From the NCBI GenBank assembly GCA_023379675.1, contig JAMCPL010000008.1, positions 30,720 through 94,719 of the forward strand: a stretch of 64,000 nucleotides of DNA. Reading direction: 5' to 3'. This document shows, one piece after another, positions 407 to 63,994 of this stretch; positions within the stretch are counted from its first letter, which is position 1, and every line of letters starts with the position of its first letter. This DNA is from Actinomycetota bacterium (GTDB lineage Bacteria; Actinomycetota; Acidimicrobiia; Acidimicrobiales; JAMCPL01). The translations under genes were made by a program, and so were the position numbers. A model generated the notes under the pieces. It had not been told where the DNA came from, did not search any database, and worked only from the letters and a program-made list of their open reading frames with translations.

Positions 407-1786
407 ATGAACGATCTCAACGATGAGTGGTTCGCGAGAGCCCAGCGAGTGATTCCGGGGGGTGTGGACTCACCAGTACGATCCTTCAGCTCCGTGGGAG
501 GCACCCCCGTAACGGTGGACCACGGCAAGGGAGCATACCTATACGATGTGAATGGCCACCGGTATGTGGACATGATCCAGTCGTATGGTGCAGTAATCCT
601 CGGCCATGCCGATCCCGGTATCACTAGTGCGCTTTACGACGCAATTAGCAAGGGTACGACATTCGGCACCCCCACCAGAGGCGAGGTGCTGCTTGCAGAG
701 GAGATATGCGCAAGAGTACCCGGTTGCGAGCAGGTGCGGTTTGTATCGTCAGGCACTGAGGCTGCAATGAGCGCCATACGTCTGGCAAGGGGAGCCACCG
801 GGAGGGACCGGGTGATCAAGTTCGCAGGTTGCTACCATGGTCACTCGGACGGATTGCTGGCAAAAAGCGGCAGTGGCGTTGCCGTCATGGGGTTGTCCGG
901 GTCGGAGGCAGGGTCGGAGGCAGGGTCGGAGGCAGGGTCGGAGGCAGGGTCGGAGGCAGGGTCGGAGGCAGGGTACCTGCCAGGCTCACTGCCTGGATCT
1001 GCAGGTGTGCCTGTTGCAAGCGTAAGTGACACCATAATATGTCCATACAACCAGGTGCCTTCCCATGATGTGCTGGATGAAAAAGTGGCATGCGTAATAG
1101 TGGAACCAGTTGCGGCCAACATGGGTGTAGTGCTTCCCGCACCGGGTTTCCTGCAAGGTTTGCGTAACGCATGTGATGCCGCTGGTGCCCTGCTCATCTT
1201 CGACGAGGTAATCACCGGCTTCAGGGTGGCTTACAGCAACGCGTCAACCATGTGTGGCGTGATACCGGATATCTACTGCTTCGGCAAGGTCATCGGTGGT
1301 GGACTCCCCCTTGCGGCGTTTGGCGGAAAGGCCGGATTACTGAAGCAGCTTGCACCCGTTGGGCCCGTTTACCAGGCAGGTACACTCTCGGGTAACCCAC
1401 TTGCCACAGCTGCAGGTCTGAGTGTATTGAACCGCCTGGACGAGAATGCGTTTACTACGCTGGCGAGCAAGGTGGAGTCATTCGCCGCAGGACTTCAATC
1501 TGTACTGAGTGATGCAGGGCTGGAGGCTGCCGTCCAACGATACGGTACGCTATGCAGTGTGTTCTTCGGAACAAGCAACACAGTATCTGACTATGATACT
1601 GCCTCAGCTTCAGCCGCCACCGGCATATACAGCAAGTTCTTCCACCATATGCTGGACCGCGGAGTGATGCTCCCGCCTGGTCCGTACGAAGCACTGTTCG
1701 TTGGATTGGCGCACAGCGACGCAGACTTGGACTACGTACTGGAGCAGGCAAGGACTGCTGCGTCAGAGACCGCAATGCGTATTTGA
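407..1786 (+). CDS. hemL: glutamate-1-semialdehyde 2,1-aminomutase
   Basis: FARAQRVIPGGVDSPVRSF, DEVITGFR and FGKVIGGGLP are class-III aminotransferase / HemL hallmarks. I moved the start to ATG 407 (MNDLNDEWF); the ORF-track start is 353. The gene carries an in-frame (GSEA)6 tract. Confidence 0.93.
   Translation: MNDLNDEWFARAQRVIPGGVDSPVRSFSSVGGTPVTVDHGKGAYLYDVNGHRYVDMIQSYGAVILGHADPGITSALYDAISKGTTFGTPTRGEVLLAEEICARVPGCEQVRFVSSGTEAAMSAIRLARGATGRDRVIKFAGCYHGHSDGLLAKSGSGVAVMGLSGSEAGSEAGSEAGSEAGSEAGSEAGYLPGSLPGSAGVPVASVSDTIICPYNQVPSHDVLDEKVACVIVEPVAANMGVVLPAPGFLQGLRNACDAAGALLIFDEVITGFRVAYSNASTMCGVIPDIYCFGKVIGGGLPLAAFGGKAGLLKQLAPVGPVYQAGTLSGNPLATAAGLSVLNRLDENAFTTLASKVESFAAGLQSVLSDAGLEAAVQRYGTLCSVFFGTSNTVSDYDTASASAATGIYSKFFHHMLDRGVMLPPGPYEALFVGLAHSDADLDYVLEQARTAASETAMRI
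899..970 (+). repeat. perfect 12-bp tandem repeat (GGGTCGGAGGCA) x6 inside hemL, encoding (GSEA)6
   Basis: Counted directly: six identical 12-mers from 899 to 970, in frame. Confidence 0.98.
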
Positions 1787-1814
1787 TGCATATTTGGCCA
1801 AAGGAACGCCTCGC

Positions 1815-2888
1815 TCAGTAGGGCAGGCAGACCGGCCGCCAGAGTGTGGACATTTTATCCATATCTACTGCACGTACCCTACCCTCCTGAGTAAGCTTGC
1901 GGAGATGCGCCCATAACGAATAGCGCGCCATAGAGTGTAGGGACTCCGGAACATCTCTATATACTGTCATGATCATATCATCTATAGATATACCCTGTCC
2001 GTGACCATCGTTGATACTCTTGCTACCACTGCCGGACACAACCTGTAACCCTCGGTTTGGATGATGCTGCTGGTCGCCGTTGGTGCTCTTGTCCTGATCA
2101 CCGCTCTCGCCAGGATGACGACTTAGCCTCCCATCTTGGTCTCCATCTTGATCCATACTAAGGCGAGTCACCTGAGGTGTCCTGCTCAGGCGACAGAGCG
2201 CTTCCCATACGGCCTCCTCGCGCATCCGGCGATGCTCGATGACGGAGGAGACCATCCTGGCCGGATCGTCCATGCACATACCGTGGCCTGGCAACAGCGC
2301 CCTGACCGGAGGCGTAATCTCCAGCAACAGCCGTAGGCTGTCCATGTATCTGGCCATGTCGCCATCCAGAGGGGCTATAACCACCGTGGAACCCTGCATT
2401 AGATGATCTCCGGTAAAAAGCAGGTCCTCTCCCAACAACATGTAGCACAGATGGTCCGACGAGTGACCCGGCGTGTAAATAGCCCGCAACCCAGCTCCCT
2501 GCACGCTCAGTATGTCCCCGTTCGTCAGCAGCCTGTCAGGTTCGAACCCGGGACTCCGGGTAAATCCGGCTGTCTCTGCGCCGGTAATACGCGCCAATAG
2601 AGCTGCAGCAGGTGCATGATCAAGGTGCTTGTGAGTGACGGCGATCTTGCTTATCCGACCTTCACCTATATCCGCCAGCAAATGCACATGCTCGGCCAAC
2701 TCCGGACCAGGATCCACAACCACCAGCTCATCGCTGCCTATGATATAGCTGTTGGTCCCTGGCCCGGTCATGGCTCCTGGGTTGGGAGCAACCACCCTGG
2801 TCACTCCGGGAAAGAGCTTCGCGGGTTCTCCAGGTATACAAGCTTGATAAGGATCGAAATGCTCGGAATGCACTACGGAAAGCATCAC
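1815..2888 (-). CDS. MBL-fold metallo-hydrolase with a low-complexity insert near the C-terminus
   Basis: HxHxDH motif (VTHKHLDHAPAA) and downstream TPGHSSDH. There is a roughly 60-aa D/Q/G/S-rich insert (MDQDGDQDG...GDQDKSTNGDQQHH) at about 1977-2162. Confidence 0.8.
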   Translation of the reverse strand: MMLSVVHSEHFDPYQACIPGEPAKLFPGVTRVVAPNPGAMTGPGTNSYIIGSDELVVVDPGPELAEHVHLLADIGEGRISKIAVTHKHLDHAPAAALLARITGAETAGFTRSPGFEPDRLLTNGDILSVQGAGLRAIYTPGHSSDHLCYMLLGEDLLFTGDHLMQGSTVVIAPLDGDMARYMDSLRLLLEITPPVRALLPGHGMCMDDPARMVSSVIEHRRMREEAVWEALCRLSRTPQVTRLSMDQDGDQDGRLSRHPGESGDQDKSTNGDQQHHPNRGLQVVSGSGSKSINDGHGQGISIDDMIMTVYRDVPESLHSMARYSLWAHLRKLTQEGRVRAVDMDKMSTLWRPVCLPY

Positions 2889-5107: not shown

Positions 5108-5118
5108 CCCTGCGCGCC

Positions 5119-5943
5119 TCATTGCGAGCAGACAGGCCATCGCCAGGAACCTGCTGGCAAGGACACACGCCCGTGCTCCGTGCGCCATTTGGAATAGCTT
5201 TTCGCCCACTCTTCGTGCCACTTGACCTCCGAGGCATGCAACTCATCTATAGACAGGCGTCCAAGGTCGGGGTACTGTTCAGCCTGCGCCATCGCTACGG
5301 CCACCGCAGCGCCGGCATCTCCAGCCGCATCGTGAGCAGAGGGGAGATCGACCCCGTAGTGGCTGCACAGCATCTGAAGAGTGCGCTTACCCTTGCGGAA
5401 CCGGTCAAAGTGCCGGTCTATGACCAGAACATCGACTACCCGCAAGTCCGGCAACATCACACCCGTACCAAACCACTGGCGTGAAACGGCATCAATCATG
5501 GTCAGATCGTAACTGAGATTCATACCCGCAACGACAGCACCGGTAGCTGAGGCAAACCCAAGCGCAGCAATGATATGAGAGATGCCGGACTCGAGCGTCA
5601 CGCCTTCAGAAGCCGCCCGCGCCGTGGTAATCCCATGTATAGCCACTGCCTGGGATGGTATGGGCCTACCGGGGTCAATCAAAAAATGATCTACATTCAC
5701 CGTCCTGCCTCCCTGGACATAAACCAATGCCGCCGAAACAGGAACGTCATCGAAAGGATCGACACCAGTAGTCTCCAGATCGAATCCGAGCAGGCGCCCC
5801 CTTGCCCACGAATCCAGCTGGGAATCCGCAGGATGAGGCTCCTGGCTGGTCCATTCGAATGGTTTCACCCTGACATCCTCCCTAGGGCTAAAGCCCGGGG
5901 ATTGCGCTTGCACTTTGGGGACGGTACTCGACTTCACGGGCAC
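5119..5943 (-). CDS. DEDDh 3'-5' exonuclease (DnaQ/epsilon-like)
   Basis: Exo I motif GFDLETTG, an Exo II-like region, and Exo III HDAAGDA. Confidence 0.75.
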   Translation of the reverse strand: MPVKSSTVPKVQAQSPGFSPREDVRVKPFEWTSQEPHPADSQLDSWARGRLLGFDLETTGVDPFDDVPVSAALVYVQGGRTVNVDHFLIDPGRPIPSQAVAIHGITTARAASEGVTLESGISHIIAALGFASATGAVVAGMNLSYDLTMIDAVSRQWFGTGVMLPDLRVVDVLVIDRHFDRFRKGKRTLQMLCSHYGVDLPSAHDAAGDAGAAVAVAMAQAEQYPDLGRLSIDELHASEVKWHEEWAKSYSKWRTEHGRVSLPAGSWRWPVCSQ

Positions 5944-6441
5944 CTACTCACGCCGACCAATTCGTGTATTTGCCCGTCTCAGATACCGGTGCGAACAATC
6001 CCACAACCACCGGGCCATCAGGTGTCTGGTGTCTTTCGCTGGATTGCGCACACAATCGACAACATGCAAGCACCTGTCCTGCACCATCACGGCAAGTGTA
6101 GCCGCCTTTCCCGAGCTGTGGGCCGTTTAGCACCAGACAACCCAGCCACAGGCCACGCTCCGCTCATTACTGGATATATGCCTCATTATTGGAAGATACT
6201 AACATGCACCTGTAACGCTTACCTGGTATGCCGTATACGCGCAATGCATATACAGGACGGCGGACTTGCCATACAGCCGAGGTAAGCGTTTGGAACGGCA
6301 GATCCGGGGTACATCCAGCGCCGTCAAAGTCATCGATATCACCCAAGATGACACGCGCATACATGCTAAGCGCTGGCTAGACGCATCATATGCCGACATA
6401 CCGTTACCTCGATCCACCTTCACGGGAATGCCGCTATCTGA

Positions 6442-6936
6442 TCACCCCGCCTTATCCAGGTACACCATCCATTCAGGCTCAGGAGTAAAGCGCATCAGCC
6501 ATGCCTCCCGGCCAAGAGGACGGTACGGTACCCTGTGCAGGACCCAGCCCATCTCTTTTACGGTCTTGGCGCCTTTCTTGCCATTGCATCTGGTACAGGC
6601 CGCCACGACATTCTCCCAGGAATGACTACCGCCATTGCACCGCGGTATCACATGGTCGGTGGTGGTGGCCGGCTTTCCGCAGTAGGCACAGACATGATGA
6701 TCTCGAGCCAGAACGTTACGAGTGGTCAATGCCACTGAACGGCCGTACGGCACGACTACGTAACGCATCAGGCGTATGACGGACGGCACGACTACGCTGA
6801 CGCTTGGACTATTGAAGACTGCAGTCGATTCACAAACCGTTTCAGCCTTACCACCAAACAGCAGCGATAGGGCTCTTTGGGGTGATACGACGCTCAGTGG
6901 CTCGTAGCTGGCATTCAACAACAGTACTCGGCTCAT
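6442..6936 (-). CDS. HNH endonuclease
   Basis: CAYCGKPATTTDHVIPRCNGGSHSWENVVAACTRCNGKKG is a canonical HNH/zinc-finger core. Confidence 0.85.
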   Translation of the reverse strand: MSRVLLLNASYEPLSVVSPQRALSLLFGGKAETVCESTAVFNSPSVSVVVPSVIRLMRYVVVPYGRSVALTTRNVLARDHHVCAYCGKPATTTDHVIPRCNGGSHSWENVVAACTRCNGKKGAKTVKEMGWVLHRVPYRPLGREAWLMRFTPEPEWMVYLDKAG

Positions 6937-7253: not shown

Positions 7254-7280
7254 TTAGCACTCACAAGGCAAGAGTGCTAG
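7254..7280 (+). promoter_or_regulatory. CIRCE operator (HrcA binding site) upstream of groES
   Basis: TTAGCACTC-N9-GAGTGCTAG versus consensus TTAGCACTC-N9-GAGTGCTAA (1 mismatch). It lies about 250 nt upstream of the groES ATG. Confidence 0.85.
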
Positions 7281-7533
7281 GTATCAGGTACCATGTATCA
7301 GGTATCAATGAGTATCGGGCAATGAGCATGCCGAGCAGTCTTGCAGGTATGTTGGACATGCGACATGCGGTACTCTTGTCCTTGCTGTAGAAAGCCCGTG
7401 CTGGGTGAGGCGGCATTGCAGTAGTGCAGGGTTGCAGGTATGTCCTGTCCTGGCCGGGCAGTGCAAAGATGCCCACGACGGGCAGTGCAGGTAGTAGGTA
7501 ATTGATAGCTAACAGACAGGAGGCTCAACAGAC

Positions 7534-7827: not shown

Positions 7828-8056
7828 CTGCTTCCTTGCAGTACAGTAGATGCACTGCAAGTACTGTAAGGACAGGTCTCTCACATTTCCTGGCCAGCAG
7901 GGACGTGTCGTCGTAGTGGTCAAGTGGTCGCACGTTTCACGTTCAGGCAGGATGAGGCAGGATATCAGGTAGGACATAGCGTAACAGAGCACATACAAGC
8001 AACAGTACGCAGACATTAAAGACACAAATATAGATACAAGGATAGAAGGACATACA

Positions 8057-9680: not shown

Positions 9681-9786
9681 GTGTGCTGCCTGCGAGCAGG
9701 TGCAGCCGTTGGCCCGCGTGGCGGGTCCGGCGATAGAGCTGGTCAGGGTTACCGGTGTGCTGCCTGCAAGCAGGTGCAGCCGTTGG
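9681..9786. repeat. two copies of a 32-bp hairpin-forming repeat (9681-9712 and 9755-9786, 1 mismatch) in the convergent gap after groEL; probable bidirectional terminators
   Basis: GTGTGCTGCCTGC(G/A)AGCAGGTGCAGCCGTTGG seen twice. Each copy contains an imperfect GC-rich stem (CTGCCTGC / GCAGGTGCAG). Confidence 0.6.
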
Positions 9787-11500: not shown

Positions 11501-14500
11501 TCATACGCTGTTCCTAACGCTGGCCGTGGGGGATGCCGAAAGGATCTCTTCACCGCTTCCCAAATATGCTGCAAGTACTGCGGGTGAGTGCAGTACCGAC
11601 TGCACACTTCCTTCGGCGATGATACGTCCCAGATGCAGGCAGATGAGCCTGTCTGCTATGGACGACACCAGCGGTACGTCATGCTCGATGACAATAAGCG
11701 TTGCCCTGGTGTCCTCTGCCACCCCTAGGAGGAGTTCGGCAAGTGCTTCACTCTGTCTCTGGGCGATGCCTGCCGAAGGCTCGTCGAGGAGCAGCACTGA
11801 TGGATCGTGTCCCAGCACACAGGCCAGTTCAAGCATGCGGCGAGTACCGGTGGACAGTTCGGAGACTATGGAATCACGGTAATGAGTGAGACCCATCTGT
11901 GCCATCAACTCGTCGATTCGCCCATGGACCACCCGTTCGGACCTGCGGGCATCTTTCAGGTGTAAGATGTTGGCAAGAGGATCACGTACCGGTACAGTGC
12001 GCTCTATGGCTGCCGCCAGTGCTTCTGACACTGTCATCGAGGGGAACAGCCTGGAGTCCTGAAACACCCTGCCAAGGCCCAGCTCGGCCCGAGCTGGAGG
12101 AGACAACCTGGTGATGTCCTTGCCGTTCAATGCCAGCCGACCGGTATCCAGCTTGGTATAGCCCCCGAAAATGTCAAAGAGGGTGCTCTTGCCTGCTCCA
12201 TTTGCCCCGATGATACCAAGTATCTCACCTTGCTGGACGCTCAGGCTTATATCCTCTATGGCTACCAGCCCTCCGTATGACTTGGAGACGTTCCGCACGG
12301 TGAACGCCTCTGCAGATGCTGCGCCCGGTTGCGGCGCCTGGGCGTTCTGAGCAGTTCCGGGGGGTGGCGCGGTAACCGGTGGCGCGGTAACCCCACCAGC
12401 CCCAGAGGGTCCGGCGCCTTCCGTAGCCCGTCTCTGATCAGACTTCTTCATGGCGTGGATAAACACTGATCTGAGCAGTTCTGGGTGCTTCTCCACACTT
12501 GGAGTCGGTCCGCTGAATCGGATGCGGCCGCGCTCAAAAAATACCGCCCTTTGAGCAACGGCACTGGCTACATTGATCGACTGCTCCACGATCACGAAGG
12601 TCACCCCTGATGCAGCAAGCGATTTCACCGTCTGGAGCAACTGGTCAATTACCTTTGGCGACAGACCAAGCGACATCTCGTCTATCAGCATTAGTATAGG
12701 CCTGCACAGCAACGCCTGGCTTAAGGCGAGCATCTGCTGTTCCCCTCCGGAGAGCTTTCCCGCCTTCATATTTGCCCGTTCGTGCAGGGACCGGAAGACC
12801 GTCAACACTCTTTGAGCGTCAGCCTTCGCAAAGTGCCGGTCATGGTGATGGCGTTTCACGGTCCAGCTTGCAAGCCGCAGGTTCTCAGTAACAGTAAGAG
12901 AGCTGAAAACTCCCTGCCGGGCAGGGACCATTATCATGCCAGAATGCGCCCGCTGGAAGGTGCTCAGCCGAGTTATATCCTGGCCAAGCAGCTCCACCTG
13001 CCCGCGGGTGGTAGGGATGAGCCCGGATACCACTCCAAGAAATGTAGATTTGCCGGAACCGTTGCTCCCCAGTATGGCCACTATCTCGCCCTGGGCGATG
13101 CCCATTCCGGTATTGAAAAGCGCTTGCATACGACCATAGTGAGCGTCTATGCCCTTTGCAGCCAATATTGCCGGCCGCCCACCACTTGGTGGGATGTATC
13201 CCGGAGTGTAACCCTGCCTGCCGCCTACCGGCGTGCCGGTCATACCGTTGGTGGACATTTCAAGGGTTTCCAGCGCCGCCATCTGCAGGGCCGCCCTTGC
13301 GGTCCGTGACTCCTCCGACCGGGTGGCTCGAGTTTCCAGAAGCGCTCGAGTTGGGTGAGTTGCCTGGGCCGTTGTTCCTTGCACGCTGCCCTGACCTGCT
13401 CCAGTGGCTGCCACCCTGCCATCTTGCGTTCCACGCATTTCCGGTTCTCCGGGCGCCCCGTATACCGATTCCGGCCGGGATGAGAGCATGCCTGCCAGAC
13501 GGTTCCTGACCCTGATGGCCACGCCTCCCAGCCCGCTGGGTAGGATCATAAGGAGAACCAGCAGGCCTGCTCCAGTGGCGAAAAGTTGCATGCCACCTTT
13601 CACGAAGTATAGTACTCCTTCCACATAGGCGGCTCCCAGTATGGCGCCGAGCAGTGAGCCCATTCCTCCTATTACGACCATGGTGAATATCTGGATGCTG
13701 TACTGGGGGGGGAATCCTCCAAACGAAATACCACCCAGGGCCACCACGTACAGCCCTCCGGCTATGCTCGCCATCGCGCCTGAGACACCGAAAGCCAGCA
13801 GCTTCACCCTTATAGGGCTTATACTGTAAGCAATTGCGTTCTTCTCGTTGTCACGCACGGCAAGCATTGCCCTGCCGAGTCGTGAGTTCCTCAGGCTCAG
13901 CGCGGCGAGCAGGACAACAGCCAGTACCGCCAGGCACAGCTCGTAGAATGGAAGCGGGGAGACAAGGTTGATTTTTCCAAAGAGTTCCGGGCGACTGATA
14001 CTGCTGGGTGTGATATACGGGAAGTAGCTCGGGCTCAATAGCCAGGTCGACAGCGGCACGGCAAACGCCATGGTGACCACCGCCAGGTACAGCCCCTGGA
14101 AACGCAGTGCAGGAATCCCTATTATACATGCCACGACAGCTCCGGTGATTCCGGCCAGAGCCAGAGCGACGAGTATCTCGACATGAGCATGTACCATCAG
14201 CGATGCCGTAGTAGCGGCGCCGACACCGGCAAAGGCAAACTGACCGAGGCTGATCTGGCCTGCCCAGCCGGACAGCACCACCAGTGAGACTGCGATAATG
14301 CCAAAGATTACGATGTACGAGAGTAGAGTGATCCTTGATGCGTTCAGTAGCGACGGTACCATTATGGCTGCTGCAGCTACGGCTGCGATGGCAATGGCGC
14401 GTCCCACTTTTATCTCCGGCCTCTTACGCAACGCCTCTGGCAGGGGATGCACTTCCTGCACTGCTACGTAGTCGCCCATGCCCTGGTCGGCAACCCTGGT

Positions 14501-15650: not shown

Positions 15651-15693
15651 CTCCACCTACATACCTACATTCAGGCTCCACCTACATACCTAC
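15651..15693. repeat. 18-bp perfect direct repeat x2 (CTCCACCTACATACCTAC, period 25) upstream of the ABC importer gene
   Basis: Read directly at 15651-15668 and 15676-15693. Confidence 0.9.
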
Positions 15694-16715: not shown

Positions 16716-16905
16716 CTATGGATTTCCTTCCTGTCCGGTTGCCAGCAGCTCATCCTCGTTCGCGTTATAACCTGCTGGCAGCATTACCGCCTCAGCCAAC
16801 CTGCCACGCATAATGCCAGTATCCACCCATTGGATACATTGCTACATTGCTACCTTGCTACTTGATAAGCTGTCACAACATATGTCAAACATGGGTGATA
16901 CATTG

Positions 16906-17784
16906 CTACCTTGCCACCCACCCACCGTCCACCAGCAGGTCCGTGCCAGTGATAAACGATGCTGATTCCCCGGCAAGGAAGCAGACAGCCTGTGCTATCT
17001 CGTCCGGTTCAGCCCAGCGACCCAGAGCCTGCTCGCTTTCCCTTTCAGCTTTCACCTCATCAAAGGGTAGACCCATCCGCTCTGCCTCCATGGAGATGTC
17101 TCCGCGCAGCATGGCTGTGTCCACTGAGCCAGGGCTTACTGAATTGACCCTGATCCTGTATGGCGCCAGCTCCCAGGCGAGCGCCCTTACCATGGAGATT
17201 ATTGCCCCCTTGGTCGAGCCGTAGAGCGCATGGTCTCGCTGCCCGACATGGCCGGAGACGGACGCCATGCATACTATCGATCCGCCCATTACCTGGATCA
17301 TTATCGGGATCGTGTACTTGCACATCAAGAAAGTGCCTCCCAGGTTGGTGTCTACGACCTTGCGATATTCCTCCCAGGACGTATCCTGGAATGGCTTGAC
17401 GAGCACCACTCCCGCCACGTTGGCCAGTACGTCTATGCGACCGTAATCGGATCCTATACTGGCGAGCACTTTTGAAACTGCATCTTCGTCAGATACATCG
17501 CACTGGTAATACCGCGACACAATAGGTATGTCTGCCGGCTTGGGCGAGGGCGCTGGCGAGGGCGCTGGCGAGGGCGCGGAGGTAGGTGAGGATGAGTACA
17601 TGAGCATGCCTGCAGGCGTGCCGACATCATGCTCATGCCACCCGGCGAGCGCCGCATCTTCTTCCGGGACAATGTCTATCGCTGCGACTGCATATCCGAG
17701 CATGTCCAGGCGTATTGCGGTTGCGCGGCCAATTCCATGAGCCGCTCCGGTCACGACTGCGACCTTTCTGGTCCGCTCATTCAC
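16906..17784 (-). CDS. SDR-family oxidoreductase with a P/S/A-rich insert
   Basis: TGAAHGIGRA Rossmann motif and YGSTK catalytic motif. The insert SSSPTSAPSPAPSPAPSPKP is encoded partly by the 12-bp x3 repeat at 17543-17578. Confidence 0.88.
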   Translation of the reverse strand: MNERTRKVAVVTGAAHGIGRATAIRLDMLGYAVAAIDIVPEEDAALAGWHEHDVGTPAGMLMYSSSPTSAPSPAPSPAPSPKPADIPIVSRYYQCDVSDEDAVSKVLASIGSDYGRIDVLANVAGVVLVKPFQDTSWEEYRKVVDTNLGGTFLMCKYTIPIMIQVMGGSIVCMASVSGHVGQRDHALYGSTKGAIISMVRALAWELAPYRIRVNSVSPGSVDTAMLRGDISMEAERMGLPFDEVKAERESEQALGRWAEPDEIAQAVCFLAGESASFITGTDLLVDGGWVAR

Positions 17785-18633: not shown

Positions 18634-19905
18634 GTGGGCAATAGATTTGTTCCGTTATCATTCGACAAGCACAAGCTGCTCTCCACAATGCAGGAGGTAG
18701 GGATAGGAGCCATGATCCTCACCTCCCCAGAGAACGTGTTCTATGTAACCGGCTATCCGGTACTCACAAGTGCAGGCAACCCCATCCTGCATACTCTTTC
18801 CAATCAGTTTCCTGTTGTGGCATGCATTGACCGTGAGGGCAAGGTCATGCTGGCCTGCTGGCTGGTTTCCACCCTGGGTGCGGACTTTGGCGCTGACGAA
18901 TTGTTGCTCTACCTCGACAGGGAAGGCGCTGCCGGAGAAATTCGTAAACTCGTGGACCATGCAGCTGAGCAGCCAGGGAGGGTAGGCATAGAGTCGACCT
19001 GTCCTTATCATGTGGTGAAGATGTTGGAGGAATCCCTTGGTACAGGCGCTACTGGCGCGGGCAACGCCGGCGTCGATGCCGGGGCCGGTGGGGCTCGCAG
19101 CGTTGCTGCTGAGAGTGATGCGGGAATGGCTGGTACGGCCGGTGGTAGGGGAGATCAAGGTGGCGGGGTCAGCGGGAATAGTAAGGTGGTGCTGGTGGAC
19201 GCACTCATGCTGGATATGAGGGTGGTAAAGAGTGCTGCGGAAATAGCGTTTCTTGAAAACTCCATAAGGATAGTAGAGCGGTCCGTTTCTGAACTGTTCG
19301 GCCTTCTCCGCCCAGGCATGTCGCGCCTCGATCTGATCGGCAAGGCAAAAGAGATCATGGCGGCCAACGGGGCTTCGGGGGTCAGCCATGTCACGGTATC
19401 GTTCGGTAAGGAGAATCCTGAGCTGGCGATAGATGAGACACTCGTCGGTGATCGGCTGGTGACCCTGGATCTCGGTGCTTTCTACCAGGGGTATGCATCC
19501 GATAATCGCCGCTATGCCTATACGGGCACGCCTCCTGCTGCGCTGGTAAAGGCTCATGATATGATGGTGGACATTGTCGATCAAGTGGGTGCGGCTCTGT
19601 GTCCGGGAACTTCAGAGGGCGATATCTTCCAGCTGGCTGCGGAACTCTTCAATCGACACGGCCTTGATCCCTTCTTTGACCATGCAGGCCACCATGTCGG
19701 CCTCCAGACAGAGGAACGCTGGATCACTTCTGCGTCGAAGCGCCCGCTTCAAGTAGGTATGGTCGTCAACATTGAGCTGTACACTCCCGTCGAGGGCATC
19801 GACTTTGTGGGCAACGAGGAGACATTCGTAATTGATGTCTCCGGTTCCCGGCGGATATCGCAGCTTTCCAGGGAGATCATCCCGCTACCCTCAGAGGCCT
19901 GGTAG
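18634..19905 (+). CDS. M24-family metallopeptidase (Xaa-Pro peptidase / creatinase-like) with a G/A-rich insert
   Basis: Creatinase_N-like N-terminus (GIGAMILTSPENVFYVTGY) and a pita-bread domain (DLGAFYQGYASD, HHVGL, NIELY). The likely start is GTG 18634, 7 nt after AAGGAGG; the ORF-track start is 18607. Confidence 0.8.
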   Translation: MGNRFVPLSFDKHKLLSTMQEVGIGAMILTSPENVFYVTGYPVLTSAGNPILHTLSNQFPVVACIDREGKVMLACWLVSTLGADFGADELLLYLDREGAAGEIRKLVDHAAEQPGRVGIESTCPYHVVKMLEESLGTGATGAGNAGVDAGAGGARSVAAESDAGMAGTAGGRGDQGGGVSGNSKVVLVDALMLDMRVVKSAAEIAFLENSIRIVERSVSELFGLLRPGMSRLDLIGKAKEIMAANGASGVSHVTVSFGKENPELAIDETLVGDRLVTLDLGAFYQGYASDNRRYAYTGTPPAALVKAHDMMVDIVDQVGAALCPGTSEGDIFQLAAELFNRHGLDPFFDHAGHHVGLQTEERWITSASKRPLQVGMVVNIELYTPVEGIDFVGNEETFVIDVSGSRRISQLSREIIPLPSEAW

Positions 19906-19976: not shown

Positions 19977-21119
19977 ATGATGCGGAGCTTGCCAACGGCG
20001 CCAGACCGGCTTCGCGCGTCTCATTCACATCCGGTGAGGGTCGGCATGATCGGGCTTGGTACGATCCACGCGGTGCATGCAGAGGCGTTCAAACGGCCTA
20101 CCGCCAGCGCCAGCCTGCATGCCGGTATACACGCTGGCGGAGATACTGATGCAGTGAGTATGCCCGGAATAGGATTACCCGGAGAGATCGTGGCAGTGTG
20201 CGATACGGATGCCGGCAGGGCGCGCCAAGTCTCCACTGACCTGGGCTGCGCTGCGTACACTGATTACGGTGCACTGCTCAACGATGCGGATGTCGATGCG
20301 GTTGACATAACCTTGCCACATTCCCTTCACTACCAGGTTGCTCGCGATGCGTTGCAAAGTGGGAAGCACGTACTAGTGGAAAAGCCGATGGCGCCCTCGT
20401 CGGCACAGTGCAGGGAACTCATAGATCTGGCGCGGCAGCAGGGGCTTGTATTTACGGTCGCCGAGAACACGCGATTCGTACATGCATACCAGGAGGCAAG
20501 GAAGCTGCTGGATGCCGGCAAGATAGGCCAACCGAGATTGATACGTACGTTGGTCTGCGGGACGGAAGTGGCGCGACTTCGTGACAAATCGCTCTGGAAA
20601 GGTCGCGTGGACGGCACTGCCGGCGGCACTATCATGGATGCCGGGCCTCATTCTTTCTACCTATTGAAATGGCTGTGCGGGCCGGTGGTGTCTCTCCGGG
20701 CGTTCGGGTCGAAGCTGGTGGACGAGAGCGAGGTGGAAGATCATGCTGTGGTGTCCGGCTACCTGGCAAACGGCGCGATTTTCACGTCCGAGTTTACCTT
20801 TACGTCAGAGATGCCATGGAACGAGAGACTGGAGATCCATGGCACGGATGGGACTATCGTAGTAGACCAGCTGGCGAACCCACCCCTCACCGTATACAAG
20901 GGTGAGCTGGATTTTTTTGGCGCCCATCAGGCGGGAGTTGCCCATGATCCTGCGTGGTGGAAGGGTGGCTCAATCGTGGCAGGAGTGGCCGATTTCGTGC
21001 ATGCCGTCCATGACCGCCGGCCCGCAACGGTGGACCCCTGGGACGGATGCTACACCATTGAGATTGTCGAAGCGGCCTACCGCTCGTTCGGTAATGGAGG
21101 GGTCTTAGTAACCCCGTAG
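19977..21119 (+). CDS. Gfo/Idh/MocA-family oxidoreductase
   Basis: VRVGMIGLGTIH Rossmann start, EKPMA motif, and a C-terminal alpha/beta dimerisation domain. Confidence 0.8.
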   Translation: MMRSLPTAPDRLRASHSHPVRVGMIGLGTIHAVHAEAFKRPTASASLHAGIHAGGDTDAVSMPGIGLPGEIVAVCDTDAGRARQVSTDLGCAAYTDYGALLNDADVDAVDITLPHSLHYQVARDALQSGKHVLVEKPMAPSSAQCRELIDLARQQGLVFTVAENTRFVHAYQEARKLLDAGKIGQPRLIRTLVCGTEVARLRDKSLWKGRVDGTAGGTIMDAGPHSFYLLKWLCGPVVSLRAFGSKLVDESEVEDHAVVSGYLANGAIFTSEFTFTSEMPWNERLEIHGTDGTIVVDQLANPPLTVYKGELDFFGAHQAGVAHDPAWWKGGSIVAGVADFVHAVHDRRPATVDPWDGCYTIEIVEAAYRSFGNGGVLVTP

Positions 21120-22148: not shown

Positions 22149-22463
22149 CTAAACAGCGTTTGCGGGCAATCCTAAGTAATTCTTGACGATTTTCATATCA
22201 CCTTTGAGTTCGCCCACGTCTTTGACCAGCTGGTCGATCCTTGCAGTCTGCTGGTCGATCCTTGCAGTCTGCTGGTCGATCCTTGCAGTCTGCTGGTCGA
22301 TCCTTGCAGTCTGCTGGTCGATCCTTGCAGTGAGGTCAGATGCCATCTTGATCATTTCAGAACGTAAAGCATTGCCTTGCTGGACAACAAGGACCACCAA
22401 TACTCCGAACATCCCCAACAAAGGTCCGAGAATGGTCCAAAGCTGCCCAGTGGTCATGAACAT
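22149..22463 (-). CDS. small membrane-anchored coiled-coil protein with (TARIDQQ)n repeats; function unknown
   Basis: N-terminal TM helix (LWTILGPLLGMFGVLVVLVV), then about 5 heptad repeats encoded by a perfect 21-bp tandem repeat. Paralogous to 36013-36408. Confidence 0.6.
   Translation of the reverse strand: MFMTTGQLWTILGPLLGMFGVLVVLVVQQGNALRSEMIKMASDLTARIDQQTARIDQQTARIDQQTARIDQQTARIDQLVKDVGELKGDMKIVKNYLGLPANAV
22230..22330. repeat. perfect 21-bp tandem repeat (CTGGTCGATCCTTGCAGTCTG) x4.8
   Basis: Counted directly. In frame within the 104-aa ORF. Confidence 0.97.
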
Positions 22464-27200: not shown

Positions 27201-27703
27201 TCCCGAGCTGCCGCTGAAGGCCCTGCATCCAACAGTGCACTGCACAGGGGTCCCTTACTGCAACCGGTAAGAACCATCCAATGACTGGTGTCCATACCAG
27301 CGATGTCATAATCATGCAGCAGGAAGCTGCCTTTGGCGCCTCCTGCCAGATTGGCATGCGATAGTGTTCTCGAGAGCAATGAGTAACCCTCCATATCTTT
27401 TGCCAGTACGACCAGATGCCTGCTTGCAGGGTGCCCCCTATTATTCTCGTACTTCTCCTGGATACTGTGCGGTGCAGTCCACGTAACCTTAATCTCTGAT
27501 CCGAAGATGGATGGCAACCCATGAGATCGAGCCGCTTCGCTGAAACTGGCTACTCCATAAAGGCCATTATGGTCAGTGAGAGCCAGCCCGGCAAGTCCAA
27601 GCCGATCGGCCTCTTCCACTAGCTCCTCTGGGCTGGATGCGCCATCCAGAAAGCTGAAATACGAATGGCAGTGCAATTCGGCATAGCGCCGTATATCAGT
27701 CAT
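24254..27703 (-). CDS. dnaE2: error-prone DNA polymerase III alpha-like subunit DnaE2 (ImuC)
   Basis: PHP domain start YAELHCHSYFSFLDGAS. 1149 aa. The gene sits last in an imuA'-imuB-dnaE2 arrangement, with an 8-nt overlap with imuB. Confidence 0.9.
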   Translation of the reverse strand: MTDIRRYAELHCHSYFSFLDGASSPEELVEEADRLGLAGLALTDHNGLYGVASFSEAARSHGLPSIFGSEIKVTWTAPHSIQEKYENNRGHPASRHLVVLAKDMEGYSLLSRTLSHANLAGGAKGSFLLHDYDIAGMDTSHWMVLTGCSKGPLCSALLDAGPSAAARELDKLIGMCGRDNVAIEIWNHGTPLDTARNDALAAIAIKKNVQLVATNIVHYARASSYRLASILAAVREGHTLEEAQRYISPNATASLRSAAEQYRRFARWPGAVERAACIAGECTLELHPLAPQIPSFAVPRGHSQQSWLAHLVEAGAAYRYGGRNVSSAGRAWKQIDHEMEVILSLGYAGYFLVVWDIVKFCRENGIYCQGRGSAANSAVCYSLGITQADPVSLGLLFERFLSPAREEPPDIDVDIEPQRRDEVIEYVYNRYGIEHVAQVSSVITYRYRSALRDLGKALGGPLVANSRTSSSRGMPASSNGDRLPVSGHDLSVPGNVDCHADLMSEMIGVPRHLGLHPGGIVVCNRPISEVCPVEHARRPGRTVLQWDKDGCAAMGLIKIDLLGLGILQAIHMAVDLIHDTYGVDLDIGALPQDEKVYDMLCKADTVGVFQVESRAQMATLPRMQPRSFYDLVVEIALIRPGPIQGGTVHPYLRRRQGKESTQAPHPLAERSLARTLGVPLFQEQLMTMVMDVAGFTATEADALRQAMGSKRSSERMVKLRERIFAGMAANGIDREQAEEMYGKLAAFANFGFPESHAVSFAYMVYVSAWIKLHYPAAFYAALLGAQPMGFWSPQSIVLDAQRHGVEVLGPHVCHSSELASLGPCRESREKDSRQARPELGSKQADVQLGIRAGTQPGGRQSCLQAGSRVDCQVGPEAGKRTVNLAVRLGLAGIRSLGVETARRIASMRPYRSMEGLVERAELSATHMELLAGAGALDGLAVSNRRYEQDKNTPYASGESCNPGMSGMSGVPEEATRRRATAWSAGLVARASVRNAVAGSLGRQARIANVEMDCDAPNLPPMTLLEVTNAEVYASGLTTGPTAISLARSTLDSVGIVLASTLAKAGCMDGRIKVAGTVTHRQRPPTAGGTVFMNLEDETGMVNVVFSPGAWVRWQHVALSTDALIVQGHVEHAEGVTSLIAEKVMPLDPQ

Positions 27704-29234: not shown

Positions 29235-29316
29235 GTCTTTACTCTAGTCTAAATGGCGAACATATGTTTGCCATGCATGCTCGCGTCCAGTCCCTTTGCA
29301 ACGCCGTTCAGCGACC

Positions 29317-51103: not shown

Positions 51104-51179
51104 TGGCTGGCGGGGAAGGGCTCGAACCTTCAACCTCTGGGTCCAAAGCCCAGCGTTCTGCCAATTGAACTACCCGCCA
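51104..51179 (-). tRNA. tRNA-Gln (anticodon UUG), 76 nt with encoded CCA
   Basis: Folded by hand: 7-bp acceptor stem with U1:A72, D stem GUUC/GAAC, anticodon stem CUGGG/CCCAG with loop CUUUGGA, T arm GAAGG-UUCGAGC-CCUUC, discriminator G73, CCA. Confidence 0.95.
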
Positions 51180-54200: not shown

Positions 54201-55193
54201 CTACGCAATCCTGAACGCAGCACGGGTATTGTCCGCGGTGATCCGCCGTATCTCGTCCTCGCCGATTCCCAACAACCTGCCGATGCAATTGCCGACCAGT
54301 GTAACCCATCCCGGACGGTTGGGCTTACCCCTGTGTGGAACAGGGCTCAGGAATGGAGCATCCGTCTCCACAAGTAGGCGTTCAAGCGGGCACCGCCTGG
54401 CCGCTTCCCGTACCTCTTCTGCATTGCCAAAAGTCACTATACCGCTAAACGATATATATGCCCCAAGGGCAACCGCTCGATCAAGCTCACCAGGACCTCC
54501 CGTAAAACAGTGCATGATGGTCCTCGCGGGTGCCCCCTCTGATTCCAGTATTTCGAATACATCATCCCAGGCATCTCGCGCATGGATCACCAGCGTAAGG
54601 TCGTGGGAATTGGCCAGACCGATCTGGTCGGCAAAGGCCCTTTTCTGCAAGTCTTTCGAGGGAGCGTCGTAGTGATAGTCAAGACCGCACTCACCAATAC
54701 CTACAAGCATCCCTGGATGCATCCTGGCCGACCCGGTAACCAGCTTTTCCATATCCGGCTCGATATCCGCCCAAGTCTCAGCATCGTGGGGATGTACTCC
54801 AGCGGTATACCACAGGCCGAATCCATCCAGGCTGCCATGACCGCCTGAATCCTCCGCATGAAGGCGCTCGTAAACTGCCATGTTCCTTGCCTCACCGCTC
54901 GTATCACCACCAGAGGCAGTGTTGGAACTCGTTGCGCATCGGCCAGCCGCCTCTGTCTCGAGCCATTTTTCCTTCGATTCAGGAAAGTAAGCTTCCCTCA
55001 TCCGGGTACGTAGGTAAGTCACCAGATCCCGGGCCGACACGGAACTTTCCAGATCCGTACCCACGCAAACCAGTCCCACAACTCCGTTCGACCTGGCATC
55101 CACCACAGCATCAATGGGGTCTTTCCACTGATCACCATACTCGCCTTGAATATGGCAATGGCTGTCTATCCATCCAAGCTGGAACGCCTTCAC
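54201..55193 (-). CDS. tatD: TatD-family metal-dependent hydrolase/DNase with a ~58-aa low-complexity insert
   Basis: WIDSHCH, GIGECGLDYHY, VIHARDA, FSGIVTF, LVETDAPFL. The insert lies at about 54824-54998. Confidence 0.85.
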   Translation of the reverse strand: MKAFQLGWIDSHCHIQGEYGDQWKDPIDAVVDARSNGVVGLVCVGTDLESSVSARDLVTYLRTRMREAYFPESKEKWLETEAAGRCATSSNTASGGDTSGEARNMAVYERLHAEDSGGHGSLDGFGLWYTAGVHPHDAETWADIEPDMEKLVTGSARMHPGMLVGIGECGLDYHYDAPSKDLQKRAFADQIGLANSHDLTLVIHARDAWDDVFEILESEGAPARTIMHCFTGGPGELDRAVALGAYISFSGIVTFGNAEEVREAARRCPLERLLVETDAPFLSPVPHRGKPNRPGWVTLVGNCIGRLLGIGEDEIRRITADNTRAAFRIA

Positions 55194-55307: not shown

Positions 55308-55718
55308 CTATGTAGATCGGTCTTGCGGGCTGATCACGGCAAATCCAGCATTGATGGCTGCCGTAACGAGCCTATTGTCGTAGGCAATGAGCGCATCCAG
55401 CTCATTCTCGAGAATACGCATGGTAGCCAAGTGGATAGCATCCAAGGATCGCAGCATACGGTCCGGTTCGTTCATGGCGATGCTGACAATATCCTCGTCT
55501 ATACCGATGTAATCAAATGCACGTAAGAGATCCCGTGCCTCAGGAATTGCTGCCGGCAGAGCACATGTAACTGCTCGCATCACCTCAATGCGCAATAATG
55601 CAGAGCTTACCCATGAGCTGCTGGCACTGCTGTCGTAGAATGCGGCTAATGCATTTGAATGAGCTTCTTCGACAAGCAGCTTGAGAACAGCCGACGTGTC
55701 CACATAGTACATGCTCAC
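55308..55718 (-). CDS. vapC: type II toxin VapC (PIN-domain ribonuclease)
   Basis: YYVDTSAVLKLLVEE (first acidic residue), and a later DAIHLATM. 4-nt overlap (GTGA) with the upstream antitoxin gene. Confidence 0.8.
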   Translation of the reverse strand: MSMYYVDTSAVLKLLVEEAHSNALAAFYDSSASSSWVSSALLRIEVMRAVTCALPAAIPEARDLLRAFDYIGIDEDIVSIAMNEPDRMLRSLDAIHLATMRILENELDALIAYDNRLVTAAINAGFAVISPQDRST

Positions 55719-56023
55719 CAGACTTCCTCATCACGCAGCAGTGCCAGCGTCTCACTGAGCTGGTCACCGTGATCACTGCGTGGCCGCATCTTCGGGCGGT
55801 ATCCTGGTCTAGTTGCCGGCTGAGCTTTACCGGACTTGATCAACTGTGCCATGACCTGCGTGGGCACCTGTGTTTGCACCGGAATAATCCTCGCTATCGG
55901 ACGGCCATATTCTGTTATATCAACAATTTCTCCCCGCCGGACGCGAGCCATTACCCTACTGGTATCATGACGAAGCTCTCGAAGTCCCACAGCATGGGAC
56001 TCGTGATCATTGACCATTGCCAT
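55715..56023 (-). CDS. type II antitoxin (Phd/YefM-like) paired with VapC
   Basis: VGLRELRHDTSRVMARVRRGEIVDITEYGRPIARIIP is a Phd/YefM-type N-terminus. Translationally coupled to vapC. Confidence 0.75.
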   Translation of the reverse strand: MAMVNDHESHAVGLRELRHDTSRVMARVRRGEIVDITEYGRPIARIIPVQTQVPTQVMAQLIKSGKAQPATRPGYRPKMRPRSDHGDQLSETLALLRDEEVW

Positions 56024-56100
56024 ATAAATAAGTGTATCACATTTTTGTGGCTACATATCTTCTCTAGCGAGGTCAGGCAACACCAAGTGAAACAGGCACT

Positions 56101-56264
56101 CGCAATATGACATTATGATCATACCTGCCGCCACGTCCCGGTGGTTCTCCTGCAGGATCGTCACGATGCCAGGAATTCAAGGCAAGCTCCCTGGACCACC
56201 CCGCAAGCACCAGCGAATCGTCCAGATCCCCCATCCGAGGATCTGTTATACCTGCATGATCGAA
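56101..56264 (-). pseudogene. orphan fragment duplicating the last ~55 codons (minus the final tail) of the metallophosphoesterase gene at 62312-63994
   Basis: 164 bp aligns without gaps to 62340-62503, with 12 mismatches by my count. The frame is preserved ([55 protein letters not shown]), but a stop codon lies just upstream. Confidence 0.75.
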
Positions 56265-62049: not shown

Positions 62050-62169
62050 TATCCAGGCGTGAGGTGAACAGCAGGTAAACGCTGCAGGACGCTTGAATGA
62101 ACACTCGGTGAATACGCGCGAAGCCTGCCGATGCGGCTGTCTTTGAACCTACTCGCTATGCAGAACCCT

Positions 62170-62208
62170 GCCGGATGCACAATCATGCCGGATGCACAAT
62201 CATGCCGG
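62170..62208. repeat. 17-bp tandem repeat (GCCGGATGCACAATCAT) x2.3 in the intergenic region
   Basis: Read directly. Confidence 0.9.
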
Positions 62209-62311
62209 CTCCAGGCAACCACGTATGCTCGCTTCCATCATCTGCCCACCTATCATCATGGCCAGGGAATGCGTTCTGTACACTATCCAGTAACGATAGG
62301 CTTAGAGGCTC

Positions 62312-63994
62312 TTAGCTAAAGGCAAACGGAGCGGGAATCCGCAATATGACATTACGATCATATCTACCGCCACGTCCCGGCGGTTCTCCTGCAGGATCGT
62401 CACGATGCCACGAGTTCAAGGCAAGCTCCCTGGACCACCCCGCAAGCACCAGCGGATCGTCCAGATCCTCCGTCCGAGGATCCGTCATGCCTGCATGATC
62501 GAACACCGTGGAGTAGATGACCAGTTCGCCTGAACCTCTATCTATGGCAAGCTCGATAACCCGTCCCTGTTGCGGCCAATCGATCAGGGATGCGGTAGTG
62601 ATCTGCCAGATCCGGCACCCTGGATATTCCGGCGCCGCCTTCCAAGCACTGCGGGTTTTCCCGTTGCCATAGTCCGGCCCGGCACTGCTGAGCAAGGTTA
62701 TCTTATGGCGATGGGTATGGCCGTTCACCCACAGGATGACATTGGGAAAACGCCCGAGCAGCCCATCCAGATCACCGGCAAGTATCCTGCTGGAAGCTAA
62801 TGGAGAGTAACTATTCACGAGCGTCTCCAGCGGATGGTGACTGAACATAACAAACAGACGGTCCTCACGGCCACTAGTTGCCCATCTTCCATCTCCATCC
62901 AGCCAACGACTGTGCCCGTTCAACAGCTCTCCTTCGATCCAGGAAAGCTGTTCGGCATCGAGTGATCCCTGCCACCCACCCGACGGGTTCACTGTATCGA
63001 GCACAAGACACCGGACCGGGCCTGCATCAAAACTATAGTAGGAATGCCCTTTTTCAGGCGCTGGTGGCTGTATCATGCCGTTCGATACCCCGCCGGAATG
63101 GCCGTCGCCATGGCCGGCACTTTTGTAACCAGCATTTTCATGGCCATGGCCGGAATCCTGGCCGTAGCTTTCACCATCAATTGCAGTAATGCCATGCCGA
63201 AGTGCAACAAGCCACTGCTTCTGATCAACGAGCCGGCGATCCGGATCGGCAGTAACCTGTTCCCAGGGACCGCCGGACAACGCAGCTACGATATCAGGAG
63301 GTACGACACTGTGATTGGCGAGCAGGCTTCCCATGTCAGCCCCCTCCACCCATCCAGTGGCTTTCCTGTCACCCACCGCCACCCTTCTTAATATGCCAGT
63401 GTGCGGTATGGTCCCTGCAATCATGTAATCATGATTCCCTGGCACGTCATACCAGGGAATACCGAGTCCCGTAGAAGTAAACTCCCTGCGGCACGAATCA
63501 AGCAGTCCTGGCACATCCGGATACCCGAAGCGTTCATGGGCAATGTCCGAACCAGCTGAGGGTGACCCATGGCCGGCAAGCGGACCATCAGGATGCCAGT
63601 AGTACCAATCGTAGAAAGCCGTACTGCCTACTCCTTCGTAACTACTGCGATCACCCGAATCAGGTCTAATCGTCTTTCCCCCGTTCATCAGGTCGAGATA
63701 CCACTTGATCTCGTTGTACTGGGAGTTATCGGCTGCGTCACCCGTAATCATCGCAAAAGAAACAGGGCATCCAGTTACCGGCCCGTAATGCAAATTACGT
63801 ACCGCCACGGCCGTTGCCTCCACCACTTGCATGCTCAGCATGTCCTGAGGCCGGTAAGTACCGATATTGCCTAGTACAGGAAAAAACGCCGAATCAATGT
63901 TGCCGAGCCTGTCAAGGAACTCCGCCCTTGCAGGACTCTGTGCATCGGTAACGTGCAGATCAGTCAGGTGTACAAACGCCAGTAACGGCTCCAC
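62312..63994 (-). CDS. metallophosphoesterase (calcineurin-like; actinobacterial TIGR03767-like family); the N-terminus may extend beyond the window
   Basis: FVHLTDLHVTD (motif I), ITGDAADN (motif II), PGNHD (motif III), VMFSHHP, NGHTHRH. There is a G/H/S-rich insert (GQDSGHGHENAGYKSAGHGDGHSGG). Confidence 0.8.
   Translation of the reverse strand: MEPLLAFVHLTDLHVTDAQSPARAEFLDRLGNIDSAFFPVLGNIGTYRPQDMLSMQVVEATAVAVRNLHYGPVTGCPVSFAMITGDAADNSQYNEIKWYLDLMNGGKTIRPDSGDRSSYEGVGSTAFYDWYYWHPDGPLAGHGSPSAGSDIAHERFGYPDVPGLLDSCRREFTSTGLGIPWYDVPGNHDYMIAGTIPHTGILRRVAVGDRKATGWVEGADMGSLLANHSVVPPDIVAALSGGPWEQVTADPDRRLVDQKQWLVALRHGITAIDGESYGQDSGHGHENAGYKSAGHGDGHSGGVSNGMIQPPAPEKGHSYYSFDAGPVRCLVLDTVNPSGGWQGSLDAEQLSWIEGELLNGHSRWLDGDGRWATSGREDRLFVMFSHHPLETLVNSYSPLASSRILAGDLDGLLGRFPNVILWVNGHTHRHKITLLSSAGPDYGNGKTRSAWKAAPEYPGCRIWQITTASLIDWPQQGRVIELAIDRGSGELVIYSTVFDHAGMTDPRTEDLDDPLVLAGWSRELALNSWHRDDPAGEPPGRGGRYDRNVILRIPAPFAFS

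Follow-up and report, generated by a model that had tools for sequence, protein, structure and literature searches.

Why should housekeeping enzymes of a bacterium carry perfect tandem repeats and low-complexity inserts in the middle of otherwise conserved domains? The question is raised by a 64,000-nt stretch of DNA (hereafter, the window; GC content 0.56) from an Actinomycetota bacterium of the order Acidimicrobiales (assembly GCA_023379675.1, contig JAMCPL010000008.1, positions 30,720 to 94,719). According to Pfam profiles its content is largely housekeeping: hemB/hemL, groES/groEL, a fused branched-chain ABC importer, imuA'-imuB-dnaE2, recA and a MerA-like reductase, together with acetyl-CoA synthetase, glycerate kinase, methylmalonyl-CoA mutase, sua5, purE, ksgA, ispE and tatD. 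The closest named homologs of the encoded proteins come from metagenome-assembled genomes (MAGs) labelled Acidimicrobiales or Actinobacteria. An earlier note, made from the sequence alone, had listed in-frame repeats and inserts in many of these proteins and proposed an elevated slippage or recombination regime with selection filtering for frame. Our analysis indicates that the best account, to which we assign a probability of roughly 0.72, is the lineage-specific expansion and contraction of short direct repeats, filtered by reading frame and by protein fold.

All of the repeats listed in the earlier note were recovered with Tandem Repeats Finder (TRF), most of them with 100 % matches (Table 1), and the spaced exact repeat in glycerate kinase was seen directly in the sequence. 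Match rates of 91–100 % are found in seven of the eight arrays with a score of at least 60 and hold for those starting at 899, 12363, 17543, 22229, 29317, 36122 and 62158. Hits scoring 30–39 occur at about the level of shuffled sequence, some 8 per window. The comparison set of 878 kb consisted of 80 hemL-centred metagenome loci from diverse bacteria (815 kb) and of 63 kb taken from three loci in the genomes of other Acidimicrobiales. The window holds five arrays with a score of at least 100, whereas 0.36–0.47 would be expected from real-genome backgrounds (P = 4e-5 to 1e-4), and ten with a score of at least 50, compared to 2.3 expected from GC-matched loci, 5.2 from all loci and 0.1 per shuffled window. 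Strong tandem repeats are about 10-fold more frequent than in the 878 kb of other bacterial DNA, and no array scoring at least 100 was found by TRF in the 63 kb of other Acidimicrobiales. Per 10 kb, the source genome has 0.71 strong arrays and its sister species 0.56; the figure is 0.30–0.49 for relatives with 55–75 % protein identity, falls to 0 for other Acidimicrobiales and stands at 0.06 for the background.

The period of the arrays depends on where they lie. Periods are divisible by 3 in 11 out of 12 coding arrays but in only 1 out of 5 intergenic ones (TRF score at least 40; Fisher P = 0.01), the lone coding exception being a weak 16-bp match (×2.1) at 29756–29787 in imuA'. The intergenic arrays include GGTA ×14.5, 17 bp ×3, 7 bp ×4 and 8 bp ×3.4. 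Thus, the claim that every coding period is a multiple of 3 stands for all arrays but one, and GGTA is indeed intergenic, although it is not the sole non-triplet array, being joined by the intergenic 17-bp array. Length changes follow the same rule. Net coding length differences from the sister species are always multiples of 3 and are located in the insert patches, whereas only 23 % of the 57 gap events in non-coding DNA are multiples of 3, and no frameshifted allele was observed among the relatives compared. The selection for frame proposed in the earlier note is therefore borne out. Since non-triplet arrays and indels of any length are present in intergenic DNA, the mutational process itself is not triplet-based.

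The intergenic spacers are rich in short non-triplet tandem repeats, with GGTA/TACC, TGCAG and TACAT motifs, and those at 7279–7307, 7945–7963, 15655–15670 and 16835–16861 host most of the intergenic indels relative to the sister species. Downstream of groEL (9681–9786), a 32-nt direct repeat, 97 % identical, recurs 74 nt apart; sister contigs are 22, 15 and 6 bp short within this region, as though minus one repeat copy.

Inserts were judged by Pfam profiles, PDB homologs and ortholog alignments, and those reported in HemL, the MBL hydrolase, the ABC linkers, SDR, M24 peptidase, Gfo/Idh/MocA, GAD, Nudix, glycerate kinase, TatD and the metallophosphoesterase are all present by these measures. 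They are frequent among the window proteins, not universal; RecA, methylmalonyl-CoA mutase, PurE, DHDPS, GroEL/ES, FAH, BKACE and CtaG are insert-free according to Pfam. Ortholog alignments show that the segments of HemL, SDR, GAD and glycerate kinase and part of that of Gfo/Idh/MocA are missing in relatives, so the inserts are lineage-specific rather than ancestral and widespread. Their composition is the signature of disordered segments, with G, S, Q, T and A enriched and F, I, W, L and Y depleted (G 1.8×, S 1.4×, F 0.11× and His 1.18× relative to the rest). Moreover, the two inserts that were modelled (TatD and, with less weight, HemL) lack confident structure, and those mapped onto PDB homologs lie in loops or linkers of a folded domain, as is typical of disordered low-complexity inserts. 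The 21- and 75-bp repeats, however, sit in small transmembrane (TM)/coiled-coil open reading frames (ORFs), not in enzymes, and the 165-bp duplication in the MFS transporter is older and conserved, as it aligns without internal gaps in the sister species and in an intermediate relative (L094).

Comparison with the sister species, of which four regions (L001, L004, L090 and L087) at ~90 % nucleotide identity span nearly the whole window, reveals fast turnover of the inserts. Gap columns amount to 93.5 per 1000 inside inserts and 2.4 per 1000 outside (39 times denser inside), and amino-acid identity is 79.4 % inside compared to 93.7 % outside. Of 41 genes compared, fifteen are longer or shorter than their sister-species counterparts, with glycerate kinase, outside that comparison, as a further case. 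Lengths are not kept among relatives in HemL, SDR, M24, GAD, DnaE2, Nudix, glycerate kinase and TatD, while MBL, ImuB and the metallophosphoesterase segment are of equal length in the sister species. Furthermore, related lineages carry independent inserts at other sites of the same protein, as seen for M24, glycerate kinase and a HemL homolog. Change is visible even within the sister species, where a 72-bp in-frame insertion in Sua5 is polymorphic between otherwise 99.99 % identical contigs (L087 14801–15979 versus L088 11812–12918). It duplicates GKRVVVISGATN, followed by 12 unrelated residues, and may have arisen by tandem duplication and subsequent change, or else reflect an artefact of assembly. 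The core proteins GroEL, RecA and methylmalonyl-CoA mutase, all insert-free, are 95–99 % identical to those of the sister species.

Three enzymes illustrate the pattern. The HemL insert adds 26–30 residues relative to the family profile and PDB homologs. Its array directly follows the conserved motif K-x-G-S-G-V-A-x-x-G and, in view of the PDB alignments and of the mobile active-site gating loop of glutamate-1-semialdehyde aminomutase mapped to residues 151–184 of AtGSA1 (PMC4909244), lies inside that gating loop. A 91 % relative carries a shorter GSGSGS version (a 6-bp array), the length difference from the sister region L001 is 36 bp, an 80 % relative lacks the insert, and a more remote variant is seen in homolog P0006, which has a different insert at another site. 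The predicted structure of HemL is poor overall (12-sequence alignment; predicted local distance difference test, pLDDT, 62.8), so that the low value of the insert, its least confident part at pLDDT ~30, is taken as weak support only. In TatD, the insert falls between residues 54 and 61 of YcfH in the PDB alignment. The AlphaFold2 model has a mean pLDDT of 81.7, with residues 69–118 below 50 (33–48) and values above 85 elsewhere; the insert, its sole long low-confidence stretch, is thus predicted to be disordered. The loop lengthens stepwise toward the window lineage in the ortholog alignment, and the sister species has an extra GEVRGEVRG, a repeat missing from the window TatD. The glycerate-kinase insert is about 43–63 residues long when measured against the profile and solved homologs, and the glycerate kinase of the sister species is intact without the 63-residue insert. 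A deletion at a 2-bp microhomology could account for the junction, no second copy of the insert exists in the sequences compared, and a more distant relative (P0242) carries a different insert at another position.

These observations can be accommodated by a simple scheme. Short direct repeats would repeatedly expand and contract via replication slippage or unequal recombination. In intergenic DNA, arrays of any unit length (4, 7, 8 or 17 bp) would survive, whereas in genes the survivors would be frame-preserving changes at sites that the fold tolerates, such as surface loops, inter-domain linkers and termini. Young arrays would be perfect, as are GSEA ×6, APSP ×3 and QQTARID ×5; point substitutions would later degrade them to disordered patches rich in G/S/T/A/Q and poor in hydrophobic residues, which may continue to change in length, so that loops would grow stepwise and at times be lost. 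The data directly establish the repeats, their excess, the lineage specificity, rapid turnover and disordered character of the inserts, and the frame filter; we infer slippage as the generating mechanism, and most of the inserts are probably nearly neutral. Indel-blind mismatch repair of the NucS type, which is characteristic of Actinobacteria, may have been permissive: in Mycobacterium smegmatis, NucS leaves indels uncorrected in vivo (PMC7015689). Such blindness would apply to all Actinobacteria, though, and cannot alone explain a lineage-specific excess. What is seen fits a known process, slippage combined with a frame filter, in a strong lineage-specific form, and no new mechanism is indicated.

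Several points weigh against this reading. Internal DNA repeats are detectable in only about 5 of the 16 inserts, so that slippage is directly visible in the young inserts and is assigned to the old ones by extrapolation. The background consists of hemL-neighbourhood DNA on metagenome contigs, not of whole genomes. The insert boundaries of DUF929 and of the MerA linker were set with knowledge of the indels, and the inside/outside contrast is slightly inflated as a result. The multiple-of-3 rule is the expected outcome of purifying selection and is generic for coding repeats. Furthermore, a SEG-like scan, suggested in the earlier note, did not reveal a raised low-complexity fraction (5.9 % in the window versus 6.6 % in the GC-matched background), although TM segments and Ala-rich helices contribute most of this measure, and its background is inflated by spurious ORFs in high-GC loci. 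Accordingly, the part of the earlier claim that survives is that the perfect repeats and the intra-domain inserts, not bulk low complexity, are what is unusual for a bacterium. There are ~103 substitutions per gap event in coding and ~11 in non-coding DNA, figures that by themselves do not show an elevated indel rate. The data do not separate raised mutational input from weaker purifying selection, and the elevated slippage or recombination regime of the earlier note is not established.

Relaxed purifying selection, under which slightly deleterious in-frame inserts arise at an ordinary rate but drift to fixation because the effective population is small or the proteome tolerant, is the most serious competitor, although we consider it clearly less probable than repeat expansion and contraction filtered by frame and fold. 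It readily explains why the inserts evolve far faster than their flanks (79 % versus 94 % identity), are predicted to be disordered and are gained or lost between sister species with the gene left intact, and it agrees with the ordinary overall low complexity and with a coding rate of gap events that is not obviously extreme. However, intergenic DNA, on which selection for frame has no bearing, is likewise enriched in perfect multi-copy arrays, and the ~10-fold excess of strong repeats points to mutational input and not to retention alone. Moreover, since core proteins such as the insert-free GroEL, RecA and methylmalonyl-CoA mutase are highly conserved, selection is not globally weak.

At the opposite extreme, this genus-to-family-level clade of Acidimicrobiia might have a truly altered mutational regime, in which a lineage-specific defect or peculiarity in indel avoidance, added to indel-blind NucS repair, steadily inflates the proteome with repeat-derived disordered loops. 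We regard such a regime as unlikely; if real, it would be a bacterial counterpart of the low-complexity expansion in Plasmodium, reaching as far as the gating loop of HemL.

It is somewhat more doubtful still that the inserts are selected for a function, for instance as flexible tethers or as His/Asp/Gly-rich segments buffering metals or protons, with the length tuned by repeats. Such patches do occur in the GAD C-terminus, the metallophosphoesterase and MBL, the last two keep their lengths between sister species, and the HemL insert occupies a catalytic gating loop in which length could affect kinetics. Nevertheless, in overall composition the inserts do not stand out from disordered segments in general, close relatives differ in the sequence, the length and even the site of an insert, and the sister species dispenses with the glycerate-kinase insert. 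A metal-binding role of the His-rich patches was considered and rejected, given that His is merely 1.18× enriched.

Misassembly or misbinning of repeats in the MAG is very improbable. Short-read k-mer assemblies do break at the HemL array, and the Logan contigs, which end at or before it (L099 ends within it), are uninformative on its population polymorphism; copy numbers of the longer arrays likewise derive from short-read assemblies. But the window has 100 % matches in GCA_027449425.1 and in contigs of three independent Sequence Read Archive runs, its TatD and glycerate kinase recur at 100 % identity on a 191-kb contig, L001, L002 and L003 carry an identical HemL protein, and the Sua5 variant is present in both L087 and L089. 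As identical sequence is found in separate assemblies, the features are not peculiar to one of them.

Rickettsia palindromic elements insert in frame into genes and, like the inserts described here, add an extra peptide to housekeeping proteins with frame and fold left intact. An origin from a mobile or selfish in-frame element of this type, or from an intein, is effectively refuted, for although several inserts are similar in size (130–210 bp) and all lie within housekeeping genes, an all-against-all blastn of the 16 inserts gave only chance matches of 9–14 nt, a repeat search of the window detected neither a dispersed family covering them nor terminal inverted repeats, consensus or palindromic structure is absent from them, the glycerate-kinase insert has no second copy in the sequences compared, Pfam scans of the window proteins returned no intein or Hint domain, and inserts that share no sequence are not copies of one element.

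The expansion of short repeats filtered by frame and fold has parallels elsewhere. Low-complexity inserts are also found in housekeeping proteins of eukaryotes, Plasmodium falciparum among them. As in Plasmodium, the inserts of the window are disordered, fast-evolving and repeat-derived and are located in loops of conserved enzymes; unlike there, they occur in a bacterium of moderate GC, are G/S/T/A-rich rather than Asn/Lys-rich, are much smaller in scale (~5 % of the window residues) and do not raise overall low complexity. Among prokaryotes, the mycobacterial interspersed repetitive unit–variable-number tandem repeat (MIRU-VNTR) loci of mycobacteria are repeats of the slippage type. For proteins of actinobacteria, Acidimicrobiia included, conserved signature indels were reportedly described by Hu et al. 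(2018), and the inserts resemble these in being lineage-restricted and placed at defined positions, with MBL and the metallophosphoesterase keeping their length within a genus-level clade. Most of them, however, are long (30–100 residues), biased in composition and derived from repeats, and their length changes even from one sister species to the other, so that they are not stable signatures. They also differ from contingency loci of phase variation, since the coding arrays are built of 3n units and frameshifted alleles were not seen among the relatives. The closest match is with slippage-generated coding simple sequence repeats and VNTRs of prokaryotes (Lin & Kussell 2012, PMC3315296), with which they share head-to-tail, near-perfect units, a copy number that differs between close relatives at each locus, triplet-multiple units tolerated in ORFs with other lengths being intergenic, and enrichment in linkers and termini. 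In contrast to those, many of the arrays interrupt the interior of housekeeping enzymes, in one case within a catalytic lid loop, instead of residing in genes for surface or virulence proteins or close to termini, and the density of strong arrays is ~10-fold above the sampled background.

No new molecular system is revealed by these data. If the excess extends genome-wide, the lineage would offer a natural experiment on how slippage builds disordered segments in bacteria and on the tolerance of essential enzymes to insertion, such as that of ~30 residues in the gating loop of glutamate-1-semialdehyde aminomutase. The variable arrays are usable as strain-typing markers for these uncultured organisms; they also break short-read assemblies and inflate apparent divergence in ortholog alignments.

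Table 1. Tandem arrays and inserts of the 64-kb window, in order of position (strand as reported)
Feature	Position	Strand	Repeat, size or composition	Basis or context
HemL insert	887–994	+	GSEA ×6 plus GYLPGS; holds perfect 12-bp ×6.3 array	TRF, ortholog and PDB alignments
HemL GSEA array	899–974		12 bp ×6.3, 100 % matches	TRF
MBL hydrolase insert	1977–2171	-	~60 residues, D/Q/G/H-rich	between MBL and winged-helix domains
ABC importer, linker between two ATPase domains	12299–12457	-	VTAPPVTAPP repeat	TRF, Pfam layout
ABC importer VTAPP array	12363–12392		15 bp ×2	TRF
ABC importer, permease-to-first-ATPase linker	13169–13486	-	~100 residues, G/T/A/R-rich	Pfam
SDR insert	17521–17655	-	APSP ×3	after first beta-alpha-beta unit; TRF, alignment; split Pfam match
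SDR APSP array	17543–17577		12 bp ×2.9	TRF
M24 peptidase inter-domain insert	19033–19197	+	~50 residues, G/A/D-rich	Pfam, alignment
Gfo/Idh/MocA Rossmann-domain insert	20094–20186	+	+24 vs profile, +12 vs L005/L006
Coiled-coil ORF array	22229–22331	-	21 bp ×4.9, perfect heptad repeat QQTARID	TRF; 104-residue TM/coiled-coil ORF 22149–22463
GAD C-terminal insert	22583–22738	-	His/Ala/Gly-rich	alignment
GAD N-terminal extension	24041–24226	-	T/S/G/R-rich; 9 bp ×2.4 at 24189–24210	TRF, Pfam
DnaE2 MSG repeat	24798–24819	-	9 bp ×2.4	TRF
Intergenic GGTA microsatellite	29317–29374		×14.5	TRF
Nudix_N-to-NUDIX linker, expanded	30632–30790	+	+43 residues vs PDB 3o8s
MerA-like HMA-to-reductase linker	32300–32330	+	AHKAQAK
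Second coiled-coil ORF array	36122–36302	-	75 bp ×2.4, perfect	TRF; 131-residue TM/coiled-coil ORF 36013–36408
Glycerate-kinase insert	38326–38514	+	63 residues (189 bp); 18-bp exact repeat at 24-bp spacing
MFS transporter C-terminal extension	42863–43174	+	165-bp duplication ×1.9, 80 % matches	TRF
TatD insert	54813–55019	-	~63 residues	TIM barrel, between alpha2 and beta3; PDB and ortholog alignment
Intergenic non-triplet array	62158–62208		17 bp ×3	TRF
Metallophosphoesterase segment	63059–63187	-	G/H/S-rich (GHGHENAGYKSAGHGDGHSGG)	internal DNA repeats P = 0.004

The remaining inserts differ in how much they vary. The MBL hydrolase has a gap in its Pfam match at residues 202–301 and ~60 extra residues compared to LACTB2 (PDB 4ad9); in the sister species the insert is 74 % identical, versus 91 % in the flanks. 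The permease-to-ATPase linker of the ABC importer differs by 18 bp from that of the sister species and contains internal repeats (P = 0.048). In the SDR, the 2.9 APSP copies correspond to (TP)~25 in the sister species (9.7 copies by TRF) and to nothing in a 60 % relative. The linker between the M24 domains measures ~70 residues by the Pfam profile, and the relative L005 has a separate insert ~25 residues upstream instead. The Gfo/Idh/MocA insert is only 48 % identical to that of the sister species, and its extra 12 residues are missing in a 60–75 % relative. Both GAD extensions are missing in L005 and L006, the C-terminal one being 27 bp shorter than in the sister species. The MSG repeat of DnaE2 has 2.4 copies here versus 10.7 in the sister species (+81 bp), the Nudix linker is 21 bp longer there, and the single AQ of the MerA linker compares with (AQ)13 in the sister species (6 bp ×11.2).

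The two coiled-coil ORFs are paralogs, each with an N-terminal TM helix. The 104-residue gene, which has weak Pfam matches to DUF7365 and DUF948, is wholly missing from the sister region L004 (a gap in blastn), and its 131-residue paralog has two additional 21-bp units in the sister species. A similar array of 21-, 75- and 96-bp repeats is located near a contig end in L006 (5042–5317). The family is tiny: of 1.84 billion proteins searched, 59 match at E <= 1e-3, most of them as generic coiled coils, and the search yielded no match from which a function could be assigned.

The GGTA array, which reads (TACC)n on the gene strand, occupies the ~150-nt spacer between imuA' and imuB (context 29234–29472) within the imuA'-imuB-dnaE2 operon; at this spacer, imuA' overlaps a 28-codon ORF. 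Both sister assemblies are 33 bp shorter here, with 5.2 copies in L004 according to TRF. The tract might modulate expression of the error-prone polymerase genes. Neither ImuB (27696–29234) nor ImuA' (29469–30131) has a Pfam match at E <= 1e-3, whereas the ImuA' of the sister species carries a precomputed match to PF27531 (MT3502_N). ImuB has long stretches resembling low-complexity inserts, and its length is identical in the sister species.

Rfam and tRNA scans of the window gave tRNA-Gln at 51104–51179 as the sole match. Two larger rearrangements were also noted. A gene for an RNase_T-family exonuclease with its flanks (5115–6442, 1.3 kb) is shared by the window and GCA_027449425.1 and is missing in the sister region L001, in which DUF929 adjoins the HNH gene at this place; 120 nt of it (6020–6139) match L006 at 83 % and have no tRNA or Rfam match. 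The second concerns a VapB/VapC (PIN) pair (55308–56264), followed by a ~165–181-nt pseudo-copy of the metallophosphoesterase 3' end, 89 % identical to the gene 6.2 kb away (62323–62503). In the sister contig L087, this 1-kb block is replaced by 79 nt, while in an intermediate relative (L092) an antitoxin/PIN pair is likewise found upstream of tatD.

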